Below are positions 235 to 14,199 of a DNA stretch of 16,179 nt, one piece after another. Below the pieces are notes generated by a model. It was not told the origin of the DNA, made no database searches, and was given only the letters and a program-made list of their open reading frames with translations. Within the stretch, counting starts at the first letter, position 1, and each line of letters starts with the position of its first letter. The translations under genes and the position numbers were made by a program. Origin of the DNA: Promethearchaeota archaeon Loki_b32 (GTDB taxonomy: Archaea > Asgardarchaeota > Lokiarchaeia > Sigyniarchaeales > SOKP01); NCBI GenBank assembly GCA_005223125.1, contig NJBH01000056.1, forward strand, positions 1 through 16,179, given 5' to 3'.

Positions 235-1486
235 ATGGCTGATTTAGATCAAGTGAAAGGAATCGCAGCTCGTCAAATCAAACTTCTCCAAGAAAATGGG
301 ATAAGTACTGCTGAGGCTTTGGCAATGAGTCCTCATTCTACGGTCGCTTCTATTGATGGTCTTGGAGAAAAGACCACTAAAAAGTTGATATGGAATGCAA
401 GAAATGCATTAGGTATGACTGAGTTTACAACAGCTGCAAAGATTGATGACAATGTAGAATATTTTACAACTGGTTCTGCTGAATTAAATCGCATTTTAGG
501 TGGGGGATTTCAAACCGGAAAGTTAACCGAAGTGTATGGACCATTTAAGTCTGGAAAAACTGCCTTAGCTCATACACTTTCAGTTACAGTCCAATTGCCT
601 CAAAAGAAAGGCGGAATCGATGGTGCTGTTGCCTATGTAGATACGGAGAATACCTTTTCAAAAGAGAAAATAAAAAGAATTGCCAAACGATTTGAACTTA
701 ACCCTGGTGATGTATTATCAAAGATATTTCATGCTCGAATTTATTCTTCTGACCACCAATCACAAATGATCCAGAAGGCGGAATCACTCTGTAAAACACG
801 TGGAGTACGATTAATAATAGTTGATAGTCTGATGGCATTACTTAGATCAGAATATGTAGGCATAGGAAAGCTAGCTCCAAGACAGGCAGTTTTGAATCAG
901 ATGATTCATGGCTTATCTCGAATTGCTGAGACGTATAATTGTGCCGTGTTACTCACAAATCAAGTAGCTGTCAAAATGATGGGCATGTTTTCTTCTAATA
1001 ACGCGATTGGGGGGAATAGTGATAATATATTTAATATATCACTCTCAAATAGTAGCCCATGGATGTCATTTTCGAGTAATGTTCAAGACGAAGGGGTTCT
1101 CAGCGAATAATTCACTAAAGCGACGGGCTGTTATAGTTGATGCTCCTGATTTACCTCCAGAAGAATGCGAGTTTTTCATAACAGGTGCTGGTGTTGCTGA
1201 CACCGATAAGGTAGAGCTTACAGAAGCAACTGGTCTTGATTTTAAAGTGGAGTCTCTCTATGAGGAGGAGGATGCGATTGAAAATGGAACGAATTCAGGT
1301 GTCCCATCAGAATCTGAAATACCATTAACCCTAGTAAAAGGCATAGGGAAGGGGACTGTTGAAAATCTCAATGCTCAAGGAGTTAACAGTATTTCAGAGT
1401 TATTAGCAGTTTTCTGGATGATGTTTCCTAATTTCAAATCCTTTACCTCTCTTAACATGCTTAAACACTTAGATAATATCATTTAA
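235..1486 (+). CDS. radA: RadA/Rad51-family recombinase with C-terminal HhH extension, split by a 31-nt intron-like insertion; predicted join(235..1017,1049..1486), 406 aa
   Basis: N-terminal HhH domain, Walker A GPFKSGKT, Walker B LIIVDS, YVDTENTF, TNQV. The frame changes between NAIGGN and IVAHGCHFRV, and removing 1018-1048 gives GGNIVAHG. C-terminal HhH VKGIGKGTVENL. The last ~25 aa come from the antisense of a neighbouring pseudogene. GGAG SD at 216-219. Confidence 0.93.
1018..1048 (+). other. Candidate bulge-helix-bulge(-like) intron in radA mRNA, 31 nt
   Basis: GGGA 1012-1015 pairs with UCUC 1043-1046 (one G-U). 3-nt bulges are AUA 1016-1018 and AAA 1047-1049. Intron stem GUGAUA 1019-1024 / UAUCAC 1037-1042. 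Cutting after the second nt of each bulge restores the frame. The exon-side helix is weak or shifted. Confidence 0.8.
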
Positions 1487-2537: not shown

Positions 2538-2552
2538 TTTTTTGTTTAAATA
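2538..2552 (+). promoter_or_regulatory. T-tract + TATA motif upstream of FEN1 (and of a possible short uORF)
   Basis: TTTTTTGTTTAAATA followed by TTCATAGTTTATT, similar to 3823-3850. Confidence 0.6.
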
Positions 2553-2714
2553 TTCATAGTTTATTTTTACTCACCTAAAATTAAAGGTGAGAAATAAAAA
2601 TAAGACTTCATCCACTAAGAGCTATTTTCAGACTATACCACATGATAAAAGGCTGGTAGTAACTAATAACTTTTTTTATTTTTTCTTTTTATTTCTCGAG
2701 TTTAACAGTTTAAT

Positions 2715-3800
2715 ATGGGAGTAAAATTACAGCAGATTATTAATATTAAAAAAATAGATTTTCAAAGATTAGCAGGTAAAATTATCGCTGTTGATCCTCC
2801 CAACATCATTTTCAGTCTATTTAATTTTGCTCGGAAAAATACAGGAAATACCAATAATAGCTTAATTTTAGATAGAACCCAGAGACCAATATCACATTTA
2901 TATGGCCTACTCTATCGAATAAATTTTTATTATAGCAAGAAAATATTTCCGGTTTTTTGCTTTGATGGGAAAGTATCCCAGTTAAAAAGAATAATTACTA
3001 AAGATCAGCTTAAAGATTTCCTATTCACTCAGGACTGGTACAAGCAAGCAATTGAGAATGGTAATAAGGAATTAGCACGCCAGATTGCATCAAGTAAAGA
3101 GTATTTGTGGCAAAATATAATTCAAGAATCCAAACAACTTCTTGGGGCATTAGGAATCCCTTATATTGAATCACCCTCTTCGGCAGAATCTCAATGTGCG
3201 TACTTAGTAAAGAAACATTTCGTACATTTTTCCAATTCCCAAGATTATGATTCTCTTCTTTTTGGATGTCCACGTATAATTCAAAACCTCTCAAAATCAA
3301 TGAGAAGAAAAGTTCAAGGAAGATGGACATATAATAAAGTGGAGCCTGTGGTAATCAACTTAGAAAAGAATTTACAACAATTACAGATCTCAATTTTTCA
3401 ATTAGTTGATATGGCACTTTTGATCGGAACTGATTATTTTCCAGGTATCAAAGGGATCGGTCCAAAAAAAGCTCTCCACCTTATTAAAAAGTATAAGAAT
3501 ATAGAGCACATTATCAGACAAGAGAAATCCACCTATGATTTTGATGACTTAACTCACGAGATAATAAAAAATGTACGAAAAATATTCTTAATTCCTGATG
3601 TAATCGAATCGATCGATAATATCCATTGGAACCATCCTAATAGATCTCAAGTAATTTCATTATTATGTCATGAACACAACCTTAACAAAGAAAGAGTTGT
3701 AAAAAATTTTGATAAGTTTGAGACCAATTATGAAAAATGCAGAAAATATTTTTTGTTTCAAAAGAAAGCACCAAAGAAGACACAACTTACCCTATATTGA
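2715..3800 (+). CDS. fen: Flap endonuclease FEN1/XPG family protein, divergent paralog
   Basis: MGVK start, IAVD, SHLYGLLYR, FDG, SQDYDSLLFG, GTDYFPGIKGIGPKKAL (H3TH), C-terminal PIP-like KTQLTLY. Confidence 0.92.
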   Translation: MGVKLQQIINIKKIDFQRLAGKIIAVDPPNIIFSLFNFARKNTGNTNNSLILDRTQRPISHLYGLLYRINFYYSKKIFPVFCFDGKVSQLKRIITKDQLKDFLFTQDWYKQAIENGNKELARQIASSKEYLWQNIIQESKQLLGALGIPYIESPSSAESQCAYLVKKHFVHFSNSQDYDSLLFGCPRIIQNLSKSMRRKVQGRWTYNKVEPVVINLEKNLQQLQISIFQLVDMALLIGTDYFPGIKGIGPKKALHLIKKYKNIEHIIRQEKSTYDFDDLTHEIIKNVRKIFLIPDVIESIDNIHWNHPNRSQVISLLCHEHNLNKERVVKNFDKFETNYEKCRKYFLFQKKAPKKTQLTLY

Positions 3801-3822: not shown

Positions 3823-3837
3823 TTTTTTGTTTAAATA
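3823..3837 (+). promoter_or_regulatory. T-tract + TATA motif upstream of the TFB-like gene
   Basis: TTTTTTGTTTAAATA, ~50 nt before ATG 3886. The T-tract could also terminate FEN1 transcription. Confidence 0.6.
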
Positions 3838-3885
3838 TCCTCAGTTTATTCATTGGTAACGAAAATTGGTAAAATTGAGGAAGTC

Positions 3886-4488
3886 ATGACTCAGACTCTG
3901 AAAAAACAGGATATTAATATTGATAGTGGTTCTGACTATTATACTAAATTTTATAAGAAACCAAGTGAAGTTAGAGAAACGGTTTTGAATTATTTATTTC
4001 GGAACATCTCTTTTTCTACAAGACGGGATAAAATTAGAGCCGTAACCATTAATGAGAATAATCAGGTTAGTGATATTACTGGAGTTCCTGAGTTTCTTGT
4101 CCATAAATTTATCAGTAGATGTCTTGTAGATATTGTAGTATTTAAGAATTTTCTGAGGGAAAACCCGACCGTCTTAAACTATAAAGGCAAATTACTCATG
4201 ATAAAAATATTATTACGTAAAATCTATCGTCTTGTTCCTGTATTTAATTTAAGAAGAGCAATCGAAAATGCGAGAAGACTTCAAGAGAAATTGGGTAGAC
4301 TGTATTTTTGGCCACAGATCATGACTCAAGTAGCGGTCGTCATTTTTATTACCGACTTGTTAGATACCCAAAGAGATATGAAAGTTATACAATCTAATTT
4401 GAGAGTTTTATGTAGTTGCTCTGCTTATGCGTTTCATAGGACTCGTAATAAAATAGGATTGACTTCTGAGTATATCAAGAGCCTATAA
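3886..4488 (+). CDS. Hypothetical protein with a divergent TFB/TFIIB-like C-terminal cyclin repeat and no Zn ribbon
   Basis: ATG 3886 follows GAGG (the ORF track starts at TTG 3853). RRAIE...P..TQVAVVIFITDLLD...KVIQSNLRVLCSCSAYAFHRTRNKI aligns by eye with the archaeal TFB repeat-2 pattern RRAIE...P.GLVAAALYIASLLE.K.TQ.EVA.VA.VTEVTVRNRYKEL. A partial paralog at 13920-14199 supports coding status. Confidence 0.6.
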   Translation: MTQTLKKQDINIDSGSDYYTKFYKKPSEVRETVLNYLFRNISFSTRRDKIRAVTINENNQVSDITGVPEFLVHKFISRCLVDIVVFKNFLRENPTVLNYKGKLLMIKILLRKIYRLVPVFNLRRAIENARRLQEKLGRLYFWPQIMTQVAVVIFITDLLDTQRDMKVIQSNLRVLCSCSAYAFHRTRNKIGLTSEYIKSL

Positions 4489-4610: not shown

Positions 4611-5084
4611 CTAAAACAAGTTCTCAATTTTCTGATATGATGTAAGCTTTAGTAAATATTCATTCTGAAACACATCCTTCACCTTATATTTTTTAAAGTA
4701 TACTCTGCTGATATCTCTGATAATATTTTTGAGGCTGTCAATATCTAATTTATTTTGAACTCCAAAGAAGAGAAAATTTATTTTCTGATGGAATTTCGCT
4801 TGAATATAGTTTTTTGATTTTAAATAATTCAATAGCTCTATGGCTTTAGTTAATAATGATGAGATGTTATTTGAATCTATTTTCTCATAATTACCATAAA
4901 AAGTAAAATCTCCAGTTTTAAAAATTTTAATTAGGAACTTCTCTTTTGCTGAATTATTCTCTAATTTAATAATAAATTCAGTCTCTTCCTTAGATTTAAA
5001 ACCAACGTCAATTATATCCTTTTTAATTCCATCTAAATCATTAAATCTCATATCAAGAGGTTTAAAATTAATACCTATTTTCAT
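4611..5084 (-). CDS. Hypothetical protein, possibly a TBP-like fold; last gene of a 3-gene operon
   Basis: 157-aa ORF translationally coupled (TAATG overlap at 5084). IKIFKTGDFTFYG resembles the TBP-fold IF.SG.....G motif. Confidence 0.6.
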   Translation of the reverse strand: MKIGINFKPLDMRFNDLDGIKKDIIDVGFKSKEETEFIIKLENNSAKEKFLIKIFKTGDFTFYGNYEKIDSNNISSLLTKAIELLNYLKSKNYIQAKFHQKINFLFFGVQNKLDIDSLKNIIRDISRVYFKKYKVKDVFQNEYLLKLTSYQKIENLF

Positions 5085-6151
5085 TAGTCCTCCTCTTCCT
5101 CATTTTTAGTAGTATCAAAAGCATAATTCCATCGATCCTTAATTCTTCTATGGAATCTTATATGCTCTTCCATATCTGTATATATTGTCCTCCTTTCTTT
5201 ATGTAATTCACTAAGTCTTTTTTTATTTTCAATTATACTAGCTTCAGATTCACTTAAGTCTTGGATATCCATCATTAATTCTTCCTTTATAATTTTATTC
5301 TCTATAGTATCTACGGATTCATTAAGAATATCAAGCATGTTTTTATTAATTCTATGAGTATCAGCATTTAATATCCTTTCAGCAGTTTGGATTTGATCGT
5401 CGAAATCTTTTAAAGATTGAAAACCATAACTTGCGGATTCACCAATATCCGGTTGTATAGATGCGAGAAAAACACCATATGGTATTTTGCACTTATGAAG
5501 TAACTCTTGGCGGGAGATAATACCTTGATTTTGATTATAAACATATCCAAGAATTGTCAATAACTTATTCTCATAATTATTAGGAAATCGAAGTTTTAAA
5601 TATTCAATAAGTTCTGTGATCATAGATTCACATTGTATTTGAATCCCTCGTATTCCTCGTAAAAATCGATTACGTTCCGAGAGTTCTAATTTCTTTATTT
5701 CTCTCTGAAAAGGAGTGTTGATTTGTCTAAACCTCTGGATTTGTCCGATAAATCTTTGGTAAGTTATTCGATTTCTGGACAGAGAATAGCAGTAATTAAA
5801 GAAATTTCGGAGCATAGGAGCAAATGTTTGATTTGTCTCTAAGATAAATAATAGTGCTTTGTCACGTTCGTTATAATCCTTATAAATATTGATAAATGTT
5901 GGTAAAACTCCTCTGAAAAAGGAATTGATGTTATATTGACCTGTTTCTTGATATTTACATTGGTAAAATCTGATTACATTTACATCGTGACTATTGTTAT
6001 AATGATCATGTATGTAATCTGCACCTTCAATTTCATAATTAATCTCTTTGAAACTTTTTATTACCAATTTATAAGCCACAATTACATCTTGATATCTATA
6101 TCCCTTTTTAGCTAGGATACCTGATATTTTCTCTCGTTCAGAGACTGACAT
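5084..6151 (-). CDS. PD-(D/E)XK nuclease, Cap4/DUF4297-like N-terminal domain, with C-terminal coiled coil
   Basis: Motifs GYRYQD, E.EGAD, FYQCK; heptad- and charge-rich C-terminus. Confidence 0.7.
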   Translation of the reverse strand: MSVSEREKISGILAKKGYRYQDVIVAYKLVIKSFKEINYEIEGADYIHDHYNNSHDVNVIRFYQCKYQETGQYNINSFFRGVLPTFINIYKDYNERDKALLFILETNQTFAPMLRNFFNYCYSLSRNRITYQRFIGQIQRFRQINTPFQREIKKLELSERNRFLRGIRGIQIQCESMITELIEYLKLRFPNNYENKLLTILGYVYNQNQGIISRQELLHKCKIPYGVFLASIQPDIGESASYGFQSLKDFDDQIQTAERILNADTHRINKNMLDILNESVDTIENKIIKEELMMDIQDLSESEASIIENKKRLSELHKERRTIYTDMEEHIRFHRRIKDRWNYAFDTTKNEEEED

Positions 6152-6174
6152 ATATAAATACTCGAATCTAAAAT

Positions 6175-7578
6175 TTAGATGTTAATTTCTTTTATTATTC
6201 TCTCTTGAATTTCTGCTAAATCCTCATCGTCATTGGCATAATAATAAAATTTAGGATTAATGGTTATTGTTTCTTTAAGCTTTTCTATACTTTTATTAAA
6301 CTCCTTTTTTAATGCATAATAACATGCAAGATTATAATTCGCTCTTGATTCTTCTAAAATGTTCCCTTTAATTTCTTCAGAATTAAGAGCTTTATTTGTA
6401 AAATCGATTGCTTTTTCTTGATCTCCCATTTTACTATAAACTAAGCCTAAATTTAGTAATGTAATGTAAGAATCCTTATATTTTTCTAAAATTTTATTCC
6501 CTAATTCTAAAGCTCCCTTTAAATCATCATTATCAATTCTAACTTTCAATAACGTATTTGATAATTCCTTGGAAAACTCCTCTTCATTAAATTTCTTTTC
6601 TATCTCTTCTCGATTTTCTATATTCATCTGCTTACTAATCTTATCCCAATTTTTCTGACAAGTGTAAAATTCAAATAAAATTTCCTTTAAATTTTCCAAG
6701 GATAATCCTAAGTCTATTTTTTCTAAATTCTTCAATGAATTTAATATTTGATTTAGGTAATGTAAAATTAAAACTATAATTGAATGATACTGAGAATCAA
6801 ATTTAATTATCTGTTCTTTAAGCATTAAAGAATATCTAAACCGGATATCGCCCCCAGGTGAAAAGAACAGACTCGATTTAACTTTAGTTGATAGATCAGT
6901 ATTACTGCTATTGATTTTAGAAGGCTTTTTATCATTTTTTGTTTCTAAAAATTTATCTCTATATTGAAAAATATCAATGAACACAGTTTCTATATCATTT
7001 AATCTCTGGTTCCGTAATGCTAGAATTATTTTCTCTTCCACTATTTGAATACTTTTATTAATATCATTTAATATATGGTTTATGAAAGAGATTACAGATG
7101 GAAGATCCATTTCGAAATAAACTAATTCCCCAGAATGTTTTGTTAACCGCGAATAATATTTAATTTCTTCATCCTTCGAAATTAAAAAAGCTGAAGATAT
7201 TCTTGTCCAACACAATTCAAGCATATGTGGTTTCAATTTACGAATTTTCCTTCCAAAAGTAGCAGAGAGTATTTTAATCGTAGCCAAAAATTCATCATTA
7301 TTCTCGACATCAATGTCTTTAATGAATTTCTCAACCATTTCGTTAAACCTAGCTATAGAATTGATTAAAAATACTGAAAATGTATTACTAAATAAATTTT
7401 CTAGGTCATCAAGTATTTCCTTAATGAGAGAATCCGAATCCGTATTATAATCAAATAATTCAGATATTAATGTGAAAATTGTTTTATTTCCCCATTTTTC
7501 TTTTATTTCAAGAAATTTTCCAATGCCTTCTTTAATGTCCTCTTTATCTTCATCTCTTATTTCCTCGATAAAACTCAT
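6175..7578 (-). CDS. Alpha-helical protein with C-terminal TPR repeats
   Basis: LLNLGLVYSKMGDQEKAIDFTNKAL and YNLACYYALKKEFNKSIEKLKETITINP...A..DEDL are typical TPR and TPR-capping motifs. Confidence 0.8.
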   Translation of the reverse strand: MSFIEEIRDEDKEDIKEGIGKFLEIKEKWGNKTIFTLISELFDYNTDSDSLIKEILDDLENLFSNTFSVFLINSIARFNEMVEKFIKDIDVENNDEFLATIKILSATFGRKIRKLKPHMLELCWTRISSAFLISKDEEIKYYSRLTKHSGELVYFEMDLPSVISFINHILNDINKSIQIVEEKIILALRNQRLNDIETVFIDIFQYRDKFLETKNDKKPSKINSSNTDLSTKVKSSLFFSPGGDIRFRYSLMLKEQIIKFDSQYHSIIVLILHYLNQILNSLKNLEKIDLGLSLENLKEILFEFYTCQKNWDKISKQMNIENREEIEKKFNEEEFSKELSNTLLKVRIDNDDLKGALELGNKILEKYKDSYITLLNLGLVYSKMGDQEKAIDFTNKALNSEEIKGNILEESRANYNLACYYALKKEFNKSIEKLKETITINPKFYYYANDDEDLAEIQERIIKEINI

Positions 7579-7856
7579 GATTTAGATCACTAAATAATTT
7601 CTGAATTTTTTTTATTATATAAGATTAATATGTTATAAAATTGTGAATCCAAATAAAAATAATATTTATTGGATACTTTAAGATTTTAATAAACCAAATA
7701 TATCATAACAATTAAGAATATTGAATTTTTATTTTCAAAATCATCAAAAACTCAAAATTCCAATTTTCAAAAAACAATACATTTCACATAAGAGTTTTGG
7801 ATTTACATATTTAATTTAATAAATTTATTCTGTAGCTCAAATTTAAAGAAAAAAAA

Positions 7857-8060
7857 TTATTTAATATTTTTTATATGTCTGAAATATAATATTGGAATAA
7901 TTATAAACAAAAGTAACGTTTCAATAATCAGAAAAGAAAGTATATAAGTAACTTGGTCACGTGCAGAACGCCAGTACCAATAAAATTCAGTAAGTTCTGG
8001 GTTAATAAAATCTGAAGGACTTGTCCTTGTAAAAAGGATAACCACTTCAATTATCATCAA
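7857..8060 (-). CDS. Small membrane protein or gene fragment
   Basis: 67 aa with hydrophobic N- and C-terminal segments. The frame is open further upstream, overlapping the 88-aa ORF. Confidence 0.4.
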   Translation of the reverse strand: MMIIEVVILFTRTSPSDFINPELTEFYWYWRSARDQVTYILSFLIIETLLLFIIIPILYFRHIKNIK

Positions 8061-8071
8061 TATAACACCTA

Positions 8072-8338
8072 TTACCTCTTCAATCGATTTATAATTAGCT
8101 TGAGCTTCTCATCTTTAGTTACATCGATAAAATAACCTATTTCAAATCCTTTCCTTCTTGATTCCTTAGTAGAAATCCACGCAAATATTTGTTTTCCAAT
8201 AAAGAATTCTATACTGTGTTCCTTAAACTTCAGAGTAACTAAAGGATTAATCTTCTTTGCTCCGTTAGCAATATCATCGGCATATGCTCTAAATTCAGGC
8301 TTAACATTTTTCAAATATTCCAAATATTCTTCACTCAT
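8072..8338 (-). CDS. Small hypothetical protein, weakly DUF1801/DUF5655-like, possibly truncated
   Basis: Strong SD GGAGGTGA before ATG; helix-helix-beta pattern. Confidence 0.6.
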   Translation of the reverse strand: MSEEYLEYLKNVKPEFRAYADDIANGAKKINPLVTLKFKEHSIEFFIGKQIFAWISTKESRRKGFEIGYFIDVTKDEKLKLIINRLKR

Positions 8339-8367
8339 ATTATCATCACCTCCTTCATCTTTAATTT

Positions 8368-8877
8368 TTATTTGTTTAATGATTTAATTTTATGGAATTT
8401 AAATAGTGCTTTATCAATTTCTCTCAATGTCCTACTTGTTTTTTTAGACATATCCAAAATTATTGTACGATAAATATAATATCCTTTTATAGTATCTCTT
8501 TTAACGTCTTTGTCAATATCTCCTAATGATTGTAATGTTTCAATTGTTCTAACATCAATAATAGGATAAATATCAGGATAAATAAAATGTAATATAGTTG
8601 ATGCGATTGGAACACCAATTCCATATAATCCTTCTAATTTCTCTAATTTATTCTCTACGGATAAAATTTTGGTAAATGTATTTTTATATTCTTCATACTC
8701 TCGTTTACGTGTATAACCTTTAGAACGCGCTGATTTCCAATTTATAATCCTTTCAAACGTATCTTTAGTAATAGTATTCTCTGTTTCTATATCATTCTTA
8801 ACTAATTTAATGATATTATTATACTCATACTCCTCAATATCCGTATTAGCCCATTTATCAATAAACTCCTCATCCAA
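8368..8877 (-). CDS. HhH-GPD / DNA glycosylase-fold protein, probably its own gene although in frame with the upstream membrane ORF
   Basis: IINWKSAR, LYGIGVPIASTILHF.YP..YPIIDVR, LREIDKALF. An internal GGAGGT SD lies 7 nt before TTG at 8877. Confidence 0.7.
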   Translation of the reverse strand: MDEEFIDKWANTDIEEYEYNNIIKLVKNDIETENTITKDTFERIINWKSARSKGYTRKREYEEYKNTFTKILSVENKLEKLEGLYGIGVPIASTILHFIYPDIYPIIDVRTIETLQSLGDIDKDVKRDTIKGYYIYRTIILDMSKKTSRTLREIDKALFKFHKIKSLNK

Positions 8878-8897
8878 TTTTATTACCTCCTTTTTAA

Positions 8898-9417
8898 TTA
8901 TTTTTTTACTGATGGTTGCAAGAAATAGGATTAGGAGTGCCACATAATTCAGAGGAAATACCAAAAACCACGCTAACCTGTATACGATTTCAAGAGAATC
9001 AGCTATTTGATTTAGCGCAACATCAAAAATTACAATGGCTATAGGGAAATCTAACCAACCCCACTTATTTCCGATTAAGTGGATGCTATAAACTACTAAA
9101 AGAAGACCAAAAAAATATGCTGGAATAGTGAACATTAAATATATTCCAACCCAGCCCACAAGAGACCTAAGTCCTATATCTACCCACATTGCTAGAATCG
9201 CTAATCCAATAATGATTGTACCAACCATAAAAATTATTTTACTTCTTTTTTTTACAATTTCTATATTCCCTCTCCACCCTGGAATAGATTTTGGGTACTT
9301 TGAAAAGTAAATTCCACCAATAATACAAGGTACACCTATGATTAAATTAAATCCCATAATAATCATTACTATTCCTACTATAATAAGAACTAAACAAACA
9401 AATTTACGATTTTCCAT
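8898..9417 (-). CDS. Multi-pass membrane protein (N-terminal half of the 349-aa ORF)
   Basis: About 5-6 hydrophobic helices; GAGGT SD before ATG 9417. One A fewer in the A7 run (T7 at 8901-8907) would give a TAA stop at 8898-8900. Confidence 0.6.
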
Positions 9418-9564
9418 TTTTTTTACCTCTTTTCTATTAATTTTTTTACTACTTATTTATTCAAATTTATTTTTGTTTGCTTTTCTTATTCGAAATTAAT
9501 AAAATTAAGCCAAAAATAAAAAGACGGGGATCAATGTAAGAATTGGACAATCAAGTATAAATTT

Positions 9565-9975
9565 TTATCGATCACTATCCAAAAATTCTTTTATTTGATT
9601 TGGCGTTAAAATCTCATAGATTTCAGGAAATTCATGTTTAAATAAATTTAGTTTATCTTGATTATTTATTCTTGATTGTATAATTACAGCATTTGGATTC
9701 TCGGCACACCTACCTTCGTGGAGATTTCGTTCTTTATTATGCTTGAATAATAAACTACAATACCTACATTTCCATTTTCTCTTAGTTTTATAGCTAATTT
9801 TTCGATTTGGATTTAATGAACAATATGTTTTATGTTTATAGAATCCACTTGGATGGAATAATCTATCACAGAATTCACATTTTTTGAATTTACCATTTAA
9901 CTCTTCATAATCGATGACTTCGTGTCTTTTTGCTTTTGCTTCAATACATTGTTCCATTAATGATTTTACAGGCAT
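9565..9975 (-). CDS. Double C2HC zinc-finger protein
   Basis: CEFC-x11-H-x3-C (then SLNPN) and CRYC-x12-H-x3-C (then AENPN); GGAGG SD. Confidence 0.8.
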   Translation of the reverse strand: MPVKSLMEQCIEAKAKRHEVIDYEELNGKFKKCEFCDRLFHPSGFYKHKTYCSLNPNRKISYKTKRKWKCRYCSLLFKHNKERNLHEGRCAENPNAVIIQSRINNQDKLNLFKHEFPEIYEILTPNQIKEFLDSDR

Positions 9976-10742: not shown

Positions 10743-10786
10743 GAAATTGCTACGTGACGTTGGATGGTAGAACGAGCAGAAAAAAT
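10716..10786 (+). repeat. 71-bp direct repeat (70/71 identical to 15508-15578)
   Basis: Spans the small-ORF stop, a TTTATATA box flanked by the inverted repeat AGCAATT/AATTGCT, and the first codons of RPA. Confidence 0.9.
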
Positions 10787-11681
10787 ATTTGAGAAATTAT
10801 TGGACCTCGGATTAAGTGAGGAAGATATTAGTAGACAAGTGACCGAGAAACTAACTGAGTTTCAAGGATTTATGACAAAAGAAGGAGCGCTCTATTTGAT
10901 TGGAAAGGATAATGGTATTGACCTTTATTCTTCTGATCCTCAGATTCAAGAAGAAATCGAAGAGCTGATTGATTACAATGATTTTATGATCCCAATAGCA
11001 AATATCACCGAAACTATGAGTAATATCGTTATAGCTGGAAGGATTACAGAAATTTTCGGTGTAAATAGTTTTATTAAAAAAGATGGTACTCCAGGAGTAG
11101 TAGGCTCGTTTGTAATTTGTGATAAATCAGAGTGTATCAAACTTGTTCTTTGGAATGACCAAACTAAAATAATGGAAACTGAGTCTTTTCAAAAAGAGGA
11201 GATCATTCAAATTATTGGGGGATACGCTAAAGTAGGAGCAAATGGGAATTTACAGATACATTTAAGCAGGCAAGGAAAAATTGTGTTAGCACCTGAAAAG
11301 ATTGTTCTACCTGAAGTTGAGCGAGTTAGACCTTCATTAGTAGAAGATAAGAAGGGGGTGAAGTCCCCCACAAACCATACTATTGAGGAAATCTATAAGA
11401 AGGAAGGCTTTATTAAGTTTGTAAAGGGTATCGTGCACATTGAGATGTTTAAGGAACTAACCTTAAAGAGCGGAGAGAAATCTTTCTTGCTTAAATTGGC
11501 TTTATCCGATGATACTGCTTCAATTAGAGTAAATATTTGGGGGATGAAAGCTGTGGAAGGTATGAAACTTCTCACTGATGGATTTGGAGTTAAACTTACA
11601 AATGTCGTAATTAAGGAAAATAGCTATTCAAATGAAAAAGAGCTAAGTTTCAATAAAAGTTCTAGATTGGAAATAATCTAA
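10764..11681 (+). CDS. rpa: Replication protein A / single-stranded DNA-binding protein with two OB folds
   Basis: N-terminal helical domain GFMTKEGALYLIG. OB folds IAGRITEI...F.KKDG..G.V.SF.I.D.S..IKLVLWND and L.L.LSDDTASIRVNIWG. Confidence 0.88.
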   Translation: MVERAEKIFEKLLDLGLSEEDISRQVTEKLTEFQGFMTKEGALYLIGKDNGIDLYSSDPQIQEEIEELIDYNDFMIPIANITETMSNIVIAGRITEIFGVNSFIKKDGTPGVVGSFVICDKSECIKLVLWNDQTKIMETESFQKEEIIQIIGGYAKVGANGNLQIHLSRQGKIVLAPEKIVLPEVERVRPSLVEDKKGVKSPTNHTIEEIYKKEGFIKFVKGIVHIEMFKELTLKSGEKSFLLKLALSDDTASIRVNIWGMKAVEGMKLLTDGFGVKLTNVVIKENSYSNEKELSFNKSSRLEII

Positions 11682-11745: not shown

Positions 11746-13187
11746 ATGACAAGACATTACCCTTCATTTGCAATCATCACTGCATTAGAGAAAGAATACA
11801 GAACAGTTAAGATATTATTCAAACATAGGACAAAGGAGATTATTGAAGAGGTCTCAAGTTCTGAAGAAGTTTCCAAACGTGTTTTTGGAGAGATTCATAG
11901 CATTGACGGAGGGATACATGAAGTAGTTTTGTCAAAATTACCAGATATGGGGAATTTGGAAGCAGCGGTGGAATGTGAGAAATTGTTACAGACCTATAAA
12001 AGCATAAGGCATGTTCTTATGGTAGGAATAGCAGGAGGAATTCCTAATCTAAAGAAACCTAAGCATCATGTACGTTTGGGAGACATTGTCGTTTCCAAGG
12101 GAGTGATAGATTATGGCAATGTAAAATTGGAATCATTACGATATAACAAAATAATACCGAGACCAAAAAACAGGAAAGCTTCCGACATGTTGGTGGAAAA
12201 TGCTAAGAAGTTAAAAAATATATCTGATTCTCAAAAGCCTCCTTGGATTGAACATATAGCCCGTTGTGCAAGGGAACTTGGTGTTACCCGCCCTACTAAG
12301 GATATTCTATGGGTGCTAGAACGCAATGAAAATGGAAAGAATTTGTTGAGAGAGCTTTAGATAATAATCTTAATTTGCTCCAATTCGAAGAACTTTTTGA
12401 GGAGCATTATGAGGAACTATATGATATGAGGCCTGTAGAACATCCTCCCCAAGAGAGACCTAGAGATGAGCCGCTAATATTTATTGCCCCTATCGCTTCA
12501 GCAAACATTTTATTAAAAGATGAAATATTGAGAAATCGACTTCGGAAGAAAAAAGCTAAAGCCGTTGAAATGGAAAGTGCAGGAGTTGTTACTGCATGTA
12601 AGCGTGAAGAGAAGAATTTCATATCTATTAGAGGGATTTGTGATTACTGTAACTGGAAAAAAGATGATGAATGGCAAGAATACGCTGCCATTGTAGCTGC
12701 GGGTTTCACAATAGCATTTATTGAAATTCTACCTTCTGATTTAAAAGTAGATCCTGTCATCTTAAGTAATAGAGATCTTTTTTTTAACCTCATAGGTTTA
12801 ATTTTAATTATTCTTATTGCTGCAGGAATAGCTAATTTACTAAAACCAGATTTTTTTCTCTTTATTTTATATTTAGGGTTTCTTATATTCTATCTGTTTC
12901 TTCTTAGGTATACATATGACTACTGGAAAAGATATCGACAAGAGAGATTAAAACAAATCATGACAAATGTCTTAGGCTCATTATTTTTTTTTATTCCTGT
13001 TATTTCAATTTTTGTAAGGCTGTTTTATATTAATCAGGATAAAATTCCATATTTCATTTTTATAATGGTTGTTTTTAGTTTATTGTTTGAGTATCTTTAC
13101 AGATATAAGCCATTTAATCGCATTAAAATATTATATATTCTACTCGTAATTGCAGGCATCATGTCAATACCTTACATTCTCCGCTAA
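11746..13187 (+). CDS. PNP_UDP_1 (MTA/SAH nucleosidase-like) domain fused to ~5 TM helices, with a single frameshift; ~480 aa if joined
   Basis: IITALEKEY, MGNLEAA, VLMVGIAGG, VRLGDIVVS in ORF1; IASANILLKD, AVEMESAG, IRGICDY, KDDEWQEYAA in ORF2. The second frame is open from 12330 (KWKEFVERALD...), and one extra A in the A4 run at 12329-12332 joins the two. Confidence 0.85.
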
Positions 13188-13307: not shown

Positions 13308-13924
13308 TTATCGATTCCAAAATCTTCCTGAGAGGGTGGATATTATTCCCTTTCTATCTGGAATCACCCGTACCTCACTATTTACCCATTCTGAAATCCA
13401 CTTCATTCTTCTATTAAACCGTTCATCCATAAAAATAATTAATCCTTTATCAGTCTTTCTTCTTATCGGTCTTCCTGAAGCTTGGTTTGCCCTCTGCATT
13501 GCTGGATAAAGATATGCAAAATTCAATCCTTGCCTATTAAATTGGGTATCGTAATATTTTATTTTTGCCTCTACTCGTGGGGTAGGTAAGTGATAAGGAA
13601 TTCCAACAATTATAACAGAATTCATGAAACCACCTGGATAATCTTCACCCTCAGAATTTCTCCCACCACAAACTCCTAATAATACTGCTCCCTGTTTATT
13701 AGAACATGCTTTAAATTCATCAAGCATATCTGCATTATCAGAGGCGGATTTTTGAGAGTTTTCAATAAATAATTCTTTCCCATACTTATTGACCATGGAA
13801 GCAAATTTATAAGTCATTCGAACATCATTTAAGAGCCCATCTAATATTTTATAAGAAGCACAAAATACCCCAATATTTGCAGGAGTAGTTGAGACTACTT
13901 CCTCAATTTTATATACAATTTTTT
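13308..13924 (-). pseudogene. 3' fragment of an XPD/Rad3/DinG-family helicase (HD2 only)
   Basis: TPANIGVFCASY, GGRNSEGEDY (motif V), VIIVGIPY, QASGRPIRRKTDKG.I.FMDERF (motif VI). Homology extends upstream of the called ATG 13817 to ~13924 and then stops; Walker A, DEAH and FeS regions are absent. Confidence 0.85.
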
Positions 13925-14199
13925 CATCGTCTTGCTCCCATTTTCGATTTAAAAAGAGCTAAAGAGAATGCGAAAATACTTCAGGAGAAATTAAGAAGAT
14001 TATGCATTTGTCCACAGGTCATGACTCAAGTTGCTGTTATTATTTTTATCACGGATTTGCTTGATAATACCTTATTTCGGAAGTACCAGAAGATTATACA
14101 ATCCAATGTAAGGGTGCTTTGTAATTGTTCTGCGTACGCATTTCATAGGACTCGTAATAAAATAGGGCTGACTCCTAAATAGATCAAGGGTTTATAATC
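13920..14199 (+). pseudogene. 3' fragment of a paralog of the TFB-like gene
   Basis: HRLAPIFDLKRAKENAKILQEKL...CSAYAFHRTRNKIGLT matches the C-terminal ~90 aa of 3886..4488. K*IKGL* aligns with EYIKSL*. The called first ~10 aa are antisense XPD. Confidence 0.85.

Follow-up and report, generated by a model that had tools for sequence, protein, structure and literature searches.

The window, by which we mean the whole stretch of 16,179 nucleotides that was analysed, is taken from contig NJBH01000056.1 of Promethearchaeota archaeon Loki_b32. On its forward strand, positions 3886..4488 (stop codon included) translate into a protein of 200 amino acids with a pI of 10.0, which we call X. The ATG at its start is equivalent to that of all aligned homologues, in which MTQTLKK or a variant of it opens the protein, MTQTLKK itself being kept only in the closer relatives; a longer frame initiated by TTG from 3853 was rejected because the homologues all use the equivalent ATG. 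Five nucleotides before the ATG a ribosome-binding site, GAGG (3877..3880, forward strand), can be read from the sequence, and a conserved TGAGGAA stands ahead of the start in many homologous loci. Further upstream, a promoter motif made of a T-run and a TATA element (TTTTTTGTTTAAATA; 3823..3837, forward strand) ends 48 nt before the ATG. The open reading frame at 3886-4488 is a real gene with its own promoter and ribosome-binding site.

The gene lies within an island that carries a set of genes for RadA, FEN1 and RPA. Directly upstream of X is fen1-2, encoding an island-type FEN1 (2715..3800, forward strand; Pfam XPG_I and XPG_N), preceded by an island-type radA-2 that is split in two frames here (235..1486, forward strand; Pfam Rad51). 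Downstream, beyond a 5.4-kb insertion (4611-9975, minus strand), is rpa-2, encoding an RPA-like OB-fold protein (10764..11681, forward strand; Pfam OB fold). The island radA-2 is 78-92% identical to the RadA of related X loci and 39% identical to the genome's other RadA (contig C18); identity is only 36% between fen1-2 and the FEN1 encoded elsewhere in the genome (contig C4), and rpa-2 shares 33% identity with the housekeeping RPA of ~578 aa (contig C48). Since the genome has another RadA, FEN1 and RPA at this distance, the island is, judged by sequence comparison, an accessory, second and divergent radA/fen1/rpa set. The original prediction had placed X in a repair cluster; X does sit among radA, fen1 and rpa, but these are the accessory set and not the housekeeping genes. 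In addition, the island encodes membrane, secreted, Arf-like GTPase and Zn-finger proteins, and X is the only transcription-factor-like fold in its sequenced core.

Species-representative genomes supplied 63 loci, across which the succession fen1, X, RPA-like OB protein hardly varies, even at identities as low as 32%. The fen1-2 gene stands upstream of X in nearly all loci, rpa-2 follows X in 41 of 56, sometimes overlapping it or ~20-45 nt away, and radA lies ~5 kb upstream of X in related loci. One genus (g2) keeps the island-type fen1 and radA together with the T-run promoter and is devoid of X and rpa-2. Relatives without X have only a FEN1 of ~35% identity, along with the housekeeping RPA of ~578 aa and RadAs at 39-43%, and at the FEN1 loci of two other Asgard families X, rpa-2 and the T-run motif were all absent. 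The FEN1 gene of relatives that lack X adjoins ORFs that, named by eye only, are NAD-kinase-like and PIN-like.

More than 146 homologues of X, of ~200 aa and all annotated as hypothetical, were found in Asgard metagenome-assembled genomes, and clustering at 50% identity sorts them into 79 groups. When 400 genomes of the phylum were scanned, X turned up in 77 of the 134 genomes of one GTDB family of Loki-type Asgard archaea and in none of the ~265 genomes outside it, which rejects a pan-Asgard spread. One relative is 392 aa long, its extra part having no recognisable domain; longer or fused forms were otherwise not found. Our literature search returned no paper describing the family. The window itself holds a second copy, which the original prediction had described as a paralogue at 13920-14199. 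The family profile matches 13799-14173 from profile position 69, passing one in-frame TAG, and the remnant as a whole (13799..14194, forward strand; profile positions 69-193) has stops before and after its conserved core and has lost its 5' end. Over the last 85 aa it is 68% identical to X (E 4e-40) and the C-terminal motif C.CSAYAFHRTRNKIGL is the same in both, as had been noted; the copy is nonetheless a decayed pseudogene remnant, truncated at the 5' end and ended by an early stop. It adjoins a C-terminal fragment of an XPD-type helicase.

Whether X is cyclin-like at all, as the original prediction had supposed, was addressed with an AlphaFold2 model built from a 41-sequence alignment (pLDDT 88.6, pTM 0.82). 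In the model, a disordered N-terminal tail (residues 1-13; 3886..3924, forward strand; pLDDT <50) is followed by helices at residues 15-22, 26-40, 55-65 and 69-92 and by five to six more across 102-199. Residues 95-200 (4168..4485, forward strand) model as a cyclin box, so the original prediction passed the structural check that it had set for itself. When the model was compared with 48,161 PDB representatives by VIA-align, the six best matches were all TFIIB, TFB or Brf (3k1f_M, Z 8.1; 5iy6_M, 7.9; 7o4i_M, 7.5; 5wh1_A, 7.4; 8ity_V, 7.4; 1ais_B, 7.2), that is, yeast and human TFIIB, Brf1 and Pyrococcus TFB, aligned over 90-97 residues at an rmsd of 2.8-3.6. In every one of these alignments, residues ~95-200 superpose on cyclin repeat 1. 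Next came cyclins A, F, D, B and C (Z 6.0-6.5), ORC6 (Z 6.4) and the Rb pocket, the cyclins, ORC6 and Rb together spanning Z 5-6.5. Foldseek gave no match below E 1e-3, and its weak matches in PDB and BFVD were mostly TFIIB, TFB and Brf2; it aligned 160-210 columns of the full model with two-repeat TFIIB cores, but at an rmsd of 12-16 Å. In the ESM Atlas, 19 of the 30 clusters nearest to the whole protein partly carry PF00382, and of the 30 named clusters closest to residues 95-200 by themselves, 23 are of the TFIIB-repeat type, with 82-85% of members carrying PF00382 (score 0.94; 208 of 256 features in common). Because VIA-align, the weak Foldseek matches and the ESM Atlas agree, we accept a TFIIB-type cyclin box in the modelled C-terminal half, with the proviso that a Z of 7-8 is moderate for a helical domain and that the tool itself warns of common helical arrangements giving such scores. 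On the model, X has one recognisable cyclin box only.

That warning bears on a further explanation, in which X would be a general basic binder of chromatin or the nucleoid, or would serve some unrelated partner (a kinase or a GTPase, for instance) as a cyclin-like adaptor, and its resemblance to TFIIB would go no further than the architecture that cyclin boxes have in common. Such an explanation would account for structural scores arising from common helical arrangements and for a TFB homology that is undetectable in sequence, and the island does encode Arf-like GTPases and other proteins unconnected with DNA. We nevertheless regard it as very unlikely, given that three independent kinds of search put TFIIB first and that both the fixed place between fen1-2 and rpa-2 and the nearly invariant polar, basic helix 5 described below point to a specific role.

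Kinship with TFB is not seen at the level of sequence. Neither PF00382 nor any cyclin model matched X or its family in Pfam, even at E <= 1 (60 members), and the Cyclin_N/Cyclin_C signature was absent from the same 60 members, although the fold is cyclin-like; PF00382 readily finds eight TFBs (16 repeats, E 1e-13 to 1e-24) in the same genome. Aligned by hhalign with these eight TFBs, X gave a probability of 0.9%, or 0.2% with repeat 1 alone and 0.1% with repeat 2 alone. No TFB was matched by tblastn of X at E <= 10, phmmer and a 41-sequence profile of X found nothing among PDB sequences, and Pfam found nothing relevant in the second-copy fragment. The N-terminal C4 Zn ribbon (PF08271) likewise had no Pfam match in X or 60 family members, and the translation contains three cysteines (C78, C176 and C178) and no CxxC pair, on which grounds X has no Zn ribbon, in agreement with what had been claimed. 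A B-reader and a B-linker are also missing. As a TFB by sequence, X therefore fails on the Zn ribbon, PF00382 and the recognition motif. The TFB repeat-2 pattern that had been read in the C-terminus survives only as a likeness of fold, and to repeat 1; Pfam, hhalign and tblastn lend it no sequence support. Judged by its sequence, X falls outside the TFB family; what the two have in common is the fold, and perhaps also the way of working. We describe X as a variant of the TFIIB/cyclin fold whose domain architecture is new. The register originally drawn by eye (P..., a hydrophobic helix ending in ITD, Q...L and a basic helix) coincides with cyclin helices 3-5 and is statistically unsupported.

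In the N-terminal half, residues 14-92 (3925..4161, forward strand) form a three-helix HTH-like bundle. Folded alone, this domain reached a pLDDT of 80.8; its best structural matches, at Z 4.9-6.7, were the SRP54 M domain, many homeodomains, Myb/SANT domains, sigma region 4 and LuxR HTHs. Cyclins were absent from the top 50 structural matches, an absence whose weight is limited by the tool's caveat, and the domain is not recognisable as a cyclin repeat. The motif NQVSDITGVPEFLVHKFI (4060-4113, forward strand), originally likened to the HTH of TFB repeat 1, is instead the helix-turn-helix of this bundle, which as modelled is a generic three-helix HTH. No other part of the protein is as poorly conserved as the N-terminal domain (mean column conservation 0.31, vs 0.58 for the C-terminal domain), which varies far more than the neighbouring island enzymes, a variability that would be typical of regulators.

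Conservation is instead concentrated in two elements of the C-terminal domain, the loop VPVF(D/N) (0.81) and helix 5 (AYAFHRTRNK), which at 0.79 is the most conserved helix of X. Helix 5 belongs to a helix 4-turn-helix 5 unit at residues 169-189 (QSNLRVL-CSCS-AYAFHRTRNK; 4390..4452, forward strand; DSSP helices 169-175 and 180-189), in which S179 is invariant and A180, Y181, A182, F183 and H184 are at least 90% conserved among 60 sequences that are 24-57% identical to the X of the window. Together with the preceding residue, helix 5 (SAYAFHRTRNK) sits at the position of the recognition helix in the TFIIB HTH. In the eight genuine TFBs that this genome encodes, repeat 2 closes with VTEVT[LV]R.R.KEL, which bears out the reference motif of the original prediction; X has helix 5 in its place. 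On the model, this nearly invariant basic unit is a candidate surface for reading DNA or a partner. Basic charge is a feature of the whole family, with a median pI of 9.9 for the protein and 10.3 for the C-terminal domain. With its HTH domain and TFIIB-type box, a pI of 10 and a basic helix that does not vary, X likely binds DNA. It is probably a DNA-binding regulator or an accessory factor of its gene island, since it is a basic protein combining an HTH with a TFIIB-like box and is placed between a spare fen1 and a spare rpa.

The second of these roles would make X an accessory subunit of a second recombination and flap-processing machinery, a DNA- or protein-binding adaptor for rpa-2, fen1-2 or both, in a use of the fold like that of ORC6. 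In eukaryotes, ORC6 carries a pair of TFIIB-like domains, functions as part of ORC and so puts the TFIIB fold to use outside transcription. Like X, it has a TFIIB-type cyclin box and a link to genes of DNA replication or repair, and it is among the structural matches of X (8s0d chain F, or 8s0d_F, Z 6.4 over 87 residues; 3m03_A, Z 3.9). The match to ORC6 is weaker than that to TFIIB and is accompanied by no sequence similarity, and TFIIB outranks both ORC6 and the cyclins in the structural and language-model searches, albeit by at most 1.5 Z units in the former. In support of a physical partnership, the order fen1-2, X, rpa-2 is nearly constant across ~60 loci, X and rpa-2 overlap or are separated by the short gap noted above in several genomes (for example, L002/L003, L010, L048 and L062), and a surface that does not vary is what a conserved partner protein would call for. 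The genus g2 appears to have lost X and rpa-2 jointly while keeping fen1-2 and radA-2, yet this could reflect a single deletion of adjacent genes. Against an adaptor, a small ORF and a separate promoter intervene between X and rpa-2 in most loci, and membrane, secreted, GTPase and Zn-finger genes use the same class of promoter; because such unrelated gene types share the island promoter, neighbourhood alone implies no biochemical partnership. We view a subunit role as a serious alternative, if less probable than the role favoured below. Should X work with RPA and FEN1, archaea would have their own counterpart of ORC6, in which the TFIIB fold was recruited to DNA metabolism.

The first role, regulation, draws on the promoters of the island. 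The motif TTTTTT[CG]TTTAAATA occurs in five exact copies in the window, where 0.13 would be expected, and in only 21 copies in the 4.13-Mb genome. In a relaxed form, the T-run motif reaches 4.05 per 10 kb over 64 loci vs 0.22 per 10 kb in the whole genome, and a T-run with TATA lies ~50 nt ahead of the X ATG in 57 of 58 related loci. Almost all transcription units of the island have the motif ahead of them: two Zn-finger genes, radA-2, two genes for small membrane proteins, a gene for a 74-aa Zn-ribbon protein, fen1-2, X, a small ORF with rpa-2, and a gene for a 182-aa protein. Owing to this enrichment and near-universal placement, the premise that X and the rest of the island have an unusual promoter in common is well supported. 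On whether X reads the motif, the comparison across genomes that the original prediction proposed gave a mixed outcome, for the motif is not confined to genomes with X. Scored against reversed controls, it has a ratio of 1.4-2.2 in five genomes with X and of 2.1 in G182, a 99% complete genome without X or the island radA, fen1 and rpa, and genus g2 likewise retains it. In G181, in which X was not found and the ratio is 1.9, radA-2 lies at a contig end and X may be unassembled; three other genomes without X gave 0.85-1.2.

We tentatively favour, at somewhat less than an even chance, the explanation that X acts at the island promoters as a core-like TFB equivalent without a Zn ribbon, either a competitor and repressor or a co-factor in trans, and that it is probably autoregulated. 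At promoters with a T-run and TATA, its own included, X would take up a place on the TBP/TATA complex or next to it, where it might contact TBP. Because the Zn ribbon, B-reader and B-linker are absent, X alone could not be expected to recruit RNA polymerase, and it would thus act either as a competitor of TFB, that is, a repressor providing a feedback brake, or as a trans-acting co-factor of full-length TFB. Several observations are consistent with such a mechanism. The cyclin box is nearest to TFIIB, TFB and Brf, the N-terminal domain resembles homeodomains, Myb, sigma-4 and LuxR HTHs, the protein is basic, and its most conserved helix occupies the recognition-helix position. X has a promoter of the class that it would read, as do nearly all island units. 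In two complete relatives, no TFB detectable with PF00382 lies on the island contigs (G204:C24 and G184:C46), so a canonical TFB inside the island was rejected there and X, the only transcription-factor-like fold of the sequenced core, is the sole TFIIB-like candidate on them.

Other observations weigh against action at the promoters. X has no kinship with TFB at the sequence level, its structural scores are moderate with cyclins and ORC6 close behind, and the T-run could be read by the eight full TFBs encoded elsewhere in the genome rather than by X. Enrichment of the motif is as high in G182 as in genomes that have X, and the motif is kept in g2 without X. The other motif-bearing genes are also heterogeneous: the 18 that were scanned outside the island encode CDC48_N, HxlR, HNH, ParB_N and radical SAM proteins, a T2SSE ATPase, a PALP enzyme and unknowns, by which a clean DNA-repair regulon beyond the island was rejected.

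A stronger form of regulation can be envisaged, in which X would be a private sigma-like specificity factor: a TFB core without its Zn ribbon that, alone or with the Zn-ribbon protein of the island, takes the T-run rather than the BRE as its site and switches the second radA, fen1 and rpa on or off. We think this unlikely. Its most specific version, in which a split TFB has X for its core half, is completed by the free 74-aa Zn-ribbon protein and acts as a sigma-like factor, strikes us as very unlikely, even though the parts missing from X are exactly those that such a protein could supply. In related loci, a conserved Zn-ribbon protein of 74-85 aa with an acidic tail is encoded just upstream of fen1-2 under the same promoter, and in the present genome its gene is on contig C64 beside a cluster of T-run sites. 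The Zn ribbon is nevertheless generic, matching the TFIIB Zn ribbon at E 0.05 and RPA_interact_C at E 0.01, both short of the threshold, and its assignment to the TFIIB type was rejected as not significant. No equivalent of the B-reader or B-linker was identified, X has one recognisable cyclin box and not two, and T-run motifs occur where X does not (G182 and g2).

TFB/TFIIB is the universal initiation factor of archaea and eukaryotes, and X resembles this factor in some respects and departs from it in others. The cores of archaeal TFB, TFIIB and Brf (PF00382; 1ais, 3k1f and 5iy6) have, like X, a five-helix cyclin box alignable over 90-97 residues at an rmsd of ~3 Å, and X, a basic protein, has an HTH-like helix-4/helix-5 element at the position of the DNA-reading helix of TFIIB. 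X differs from all of them in having one recognisable box, corresponding to repeat 1, preceded by an N-terminal HTH bundle and without a Zn ribbon, B-reader or B-linker, and it differs from the TFBs of its own genome in that SAYAFHRTRNK replaces VTEVT.R.RYKEL and profile similarity is undetectable. The TFB3 of Sulfolobales has kept the Zn ribbon and lost the cyclin core, the opposite of the architecture of X, which has a cyclin box without a Zn ribbon. The DNA-damage response of Sulfolobales is activated by TFB3, itself a truncated paralogue of TFB (PMC6101594, PMC6101591). Both proteins are truncated and TFB-like, both are tied to DNA-damage or recombination genes, and neither would be expected to initiate transcription alone, so that each may act in trans with a full TFB; TFB3 is, however, recognisably related to TFB by sequence, which X is not, and their lineages (Thermoproteota vs Lokiarchaeia) are unrelated. 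Alternative TFBs with partly distinct regulons include the haloarchaeal TfbA-G and Sulfolobus TFB2 (bioRxiv 10.64898/2026.09.06.749720). They resemble X in concept, each being a TFB-family factor that serves one set of genes under a characteristic promoter, but are full-length proteins with a Zn ribbon and two repeats, whereas X has 200 aa and a single box.

Truncated and alternative TFBs count among the few ways known in which archaea switch promoters globally. The X family joins one TFIIB-type box to an HTH, lies beyond sequence recognition, and is fixed in a spare recombination gene set that has its own promoter class. If X acts in transcription, it would represent a new use of the TFIIB fold and would offer an experimental handle on how Asgard archaea control DNA recombination. 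As the locus defines both a candidate DNA site and candidate partners, action in transcription and action with RPA and FEN1 are each testable with recombinant proteins. In a crude survey of TATA-like octamers before long ORFs, which gave no clear signal for a general BRE consensus, promoters of the T-run class formed a minority of 13 in 354.

The genome encodes housekeeping versions of the repair proteins elsewhere, namely RadA (contig C18:178303-179043), FEN1 (C4:54189-55067) and a multi-OB RPA (C48:124019-125164). The copies in the window share only 33-39% identity with these proteins and therefore constitute a second, divergent set. Within this set, the island-type radA (235-1486) is broken across two frames that overlap, 235-1110 and 1007-1486. 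Most relatives have these parts contiguous; in two related loci, L012 and L067, radA is also represented by two overlapping HSPs, as in the window, and for this reason a simple error of assembly may not explain the break. For fen1-2, the assigned T-run promoter lies approximately 163-180 nt upstream of the ATG, both in the window (2538-2714) and in relatives, a distance which implies that the transcript has a long leader or that a small ORF precedes fen1-2.

Relatives carry, close upstream of fen1-2, the gene for a conserved Zn-ribbon protein of 74 aa whose tail is very acidic (locus L008:5347-5571). In Loki_b32 this gene is found on contig C64 (42686-42889), where it adjoins a cluster of T-run sites and lies near unannotated genes encoding proteins of 335, 385, 645 and 1228 aa. 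This stretch of C64 is probably a further piece of the same island.

The otherwise conserved adjacency of X, the gene for the TFIIB-type cyclin-box protein, and rpa is split in the window by a 5.4-kb block on the minus strand (4611-9975), encoding a TPR protein, proteins of 355 and 157 aa, a membrane protein and a Zn-finger protein. The block looks like an inserted cassette, possibly with a role in defence. Toward the contig end, a PNP_UDP_1 phosphorylase-family gene is broken into two ORFs and adjoins an XPD-type helicase fragment (11746-13187 and 13308-13817). At this site the helicase is represented by a lone C-terminal fragment, of which contig C14 carries a 64% identical copy. Taken with the remnant of X, these pieces make this contig end look like part of the island that was duplicated and has since decayed.

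The T-run+TATA motif also occurs directly ahead of each of three genes for paralogous proteins of approximately 257 aa (C40:37419-38195, C64:90406-91179 and C65:26236-27009), which weakly match radical-SAM/DUF5131. Separately, a 1720-aa open frame in the relative G178 contains three weak TFIIB-repeat matches (C76:6077-7399), and a tight group of four T-run motifs (C76:17587-17862) lies approximately 10 kb from it.
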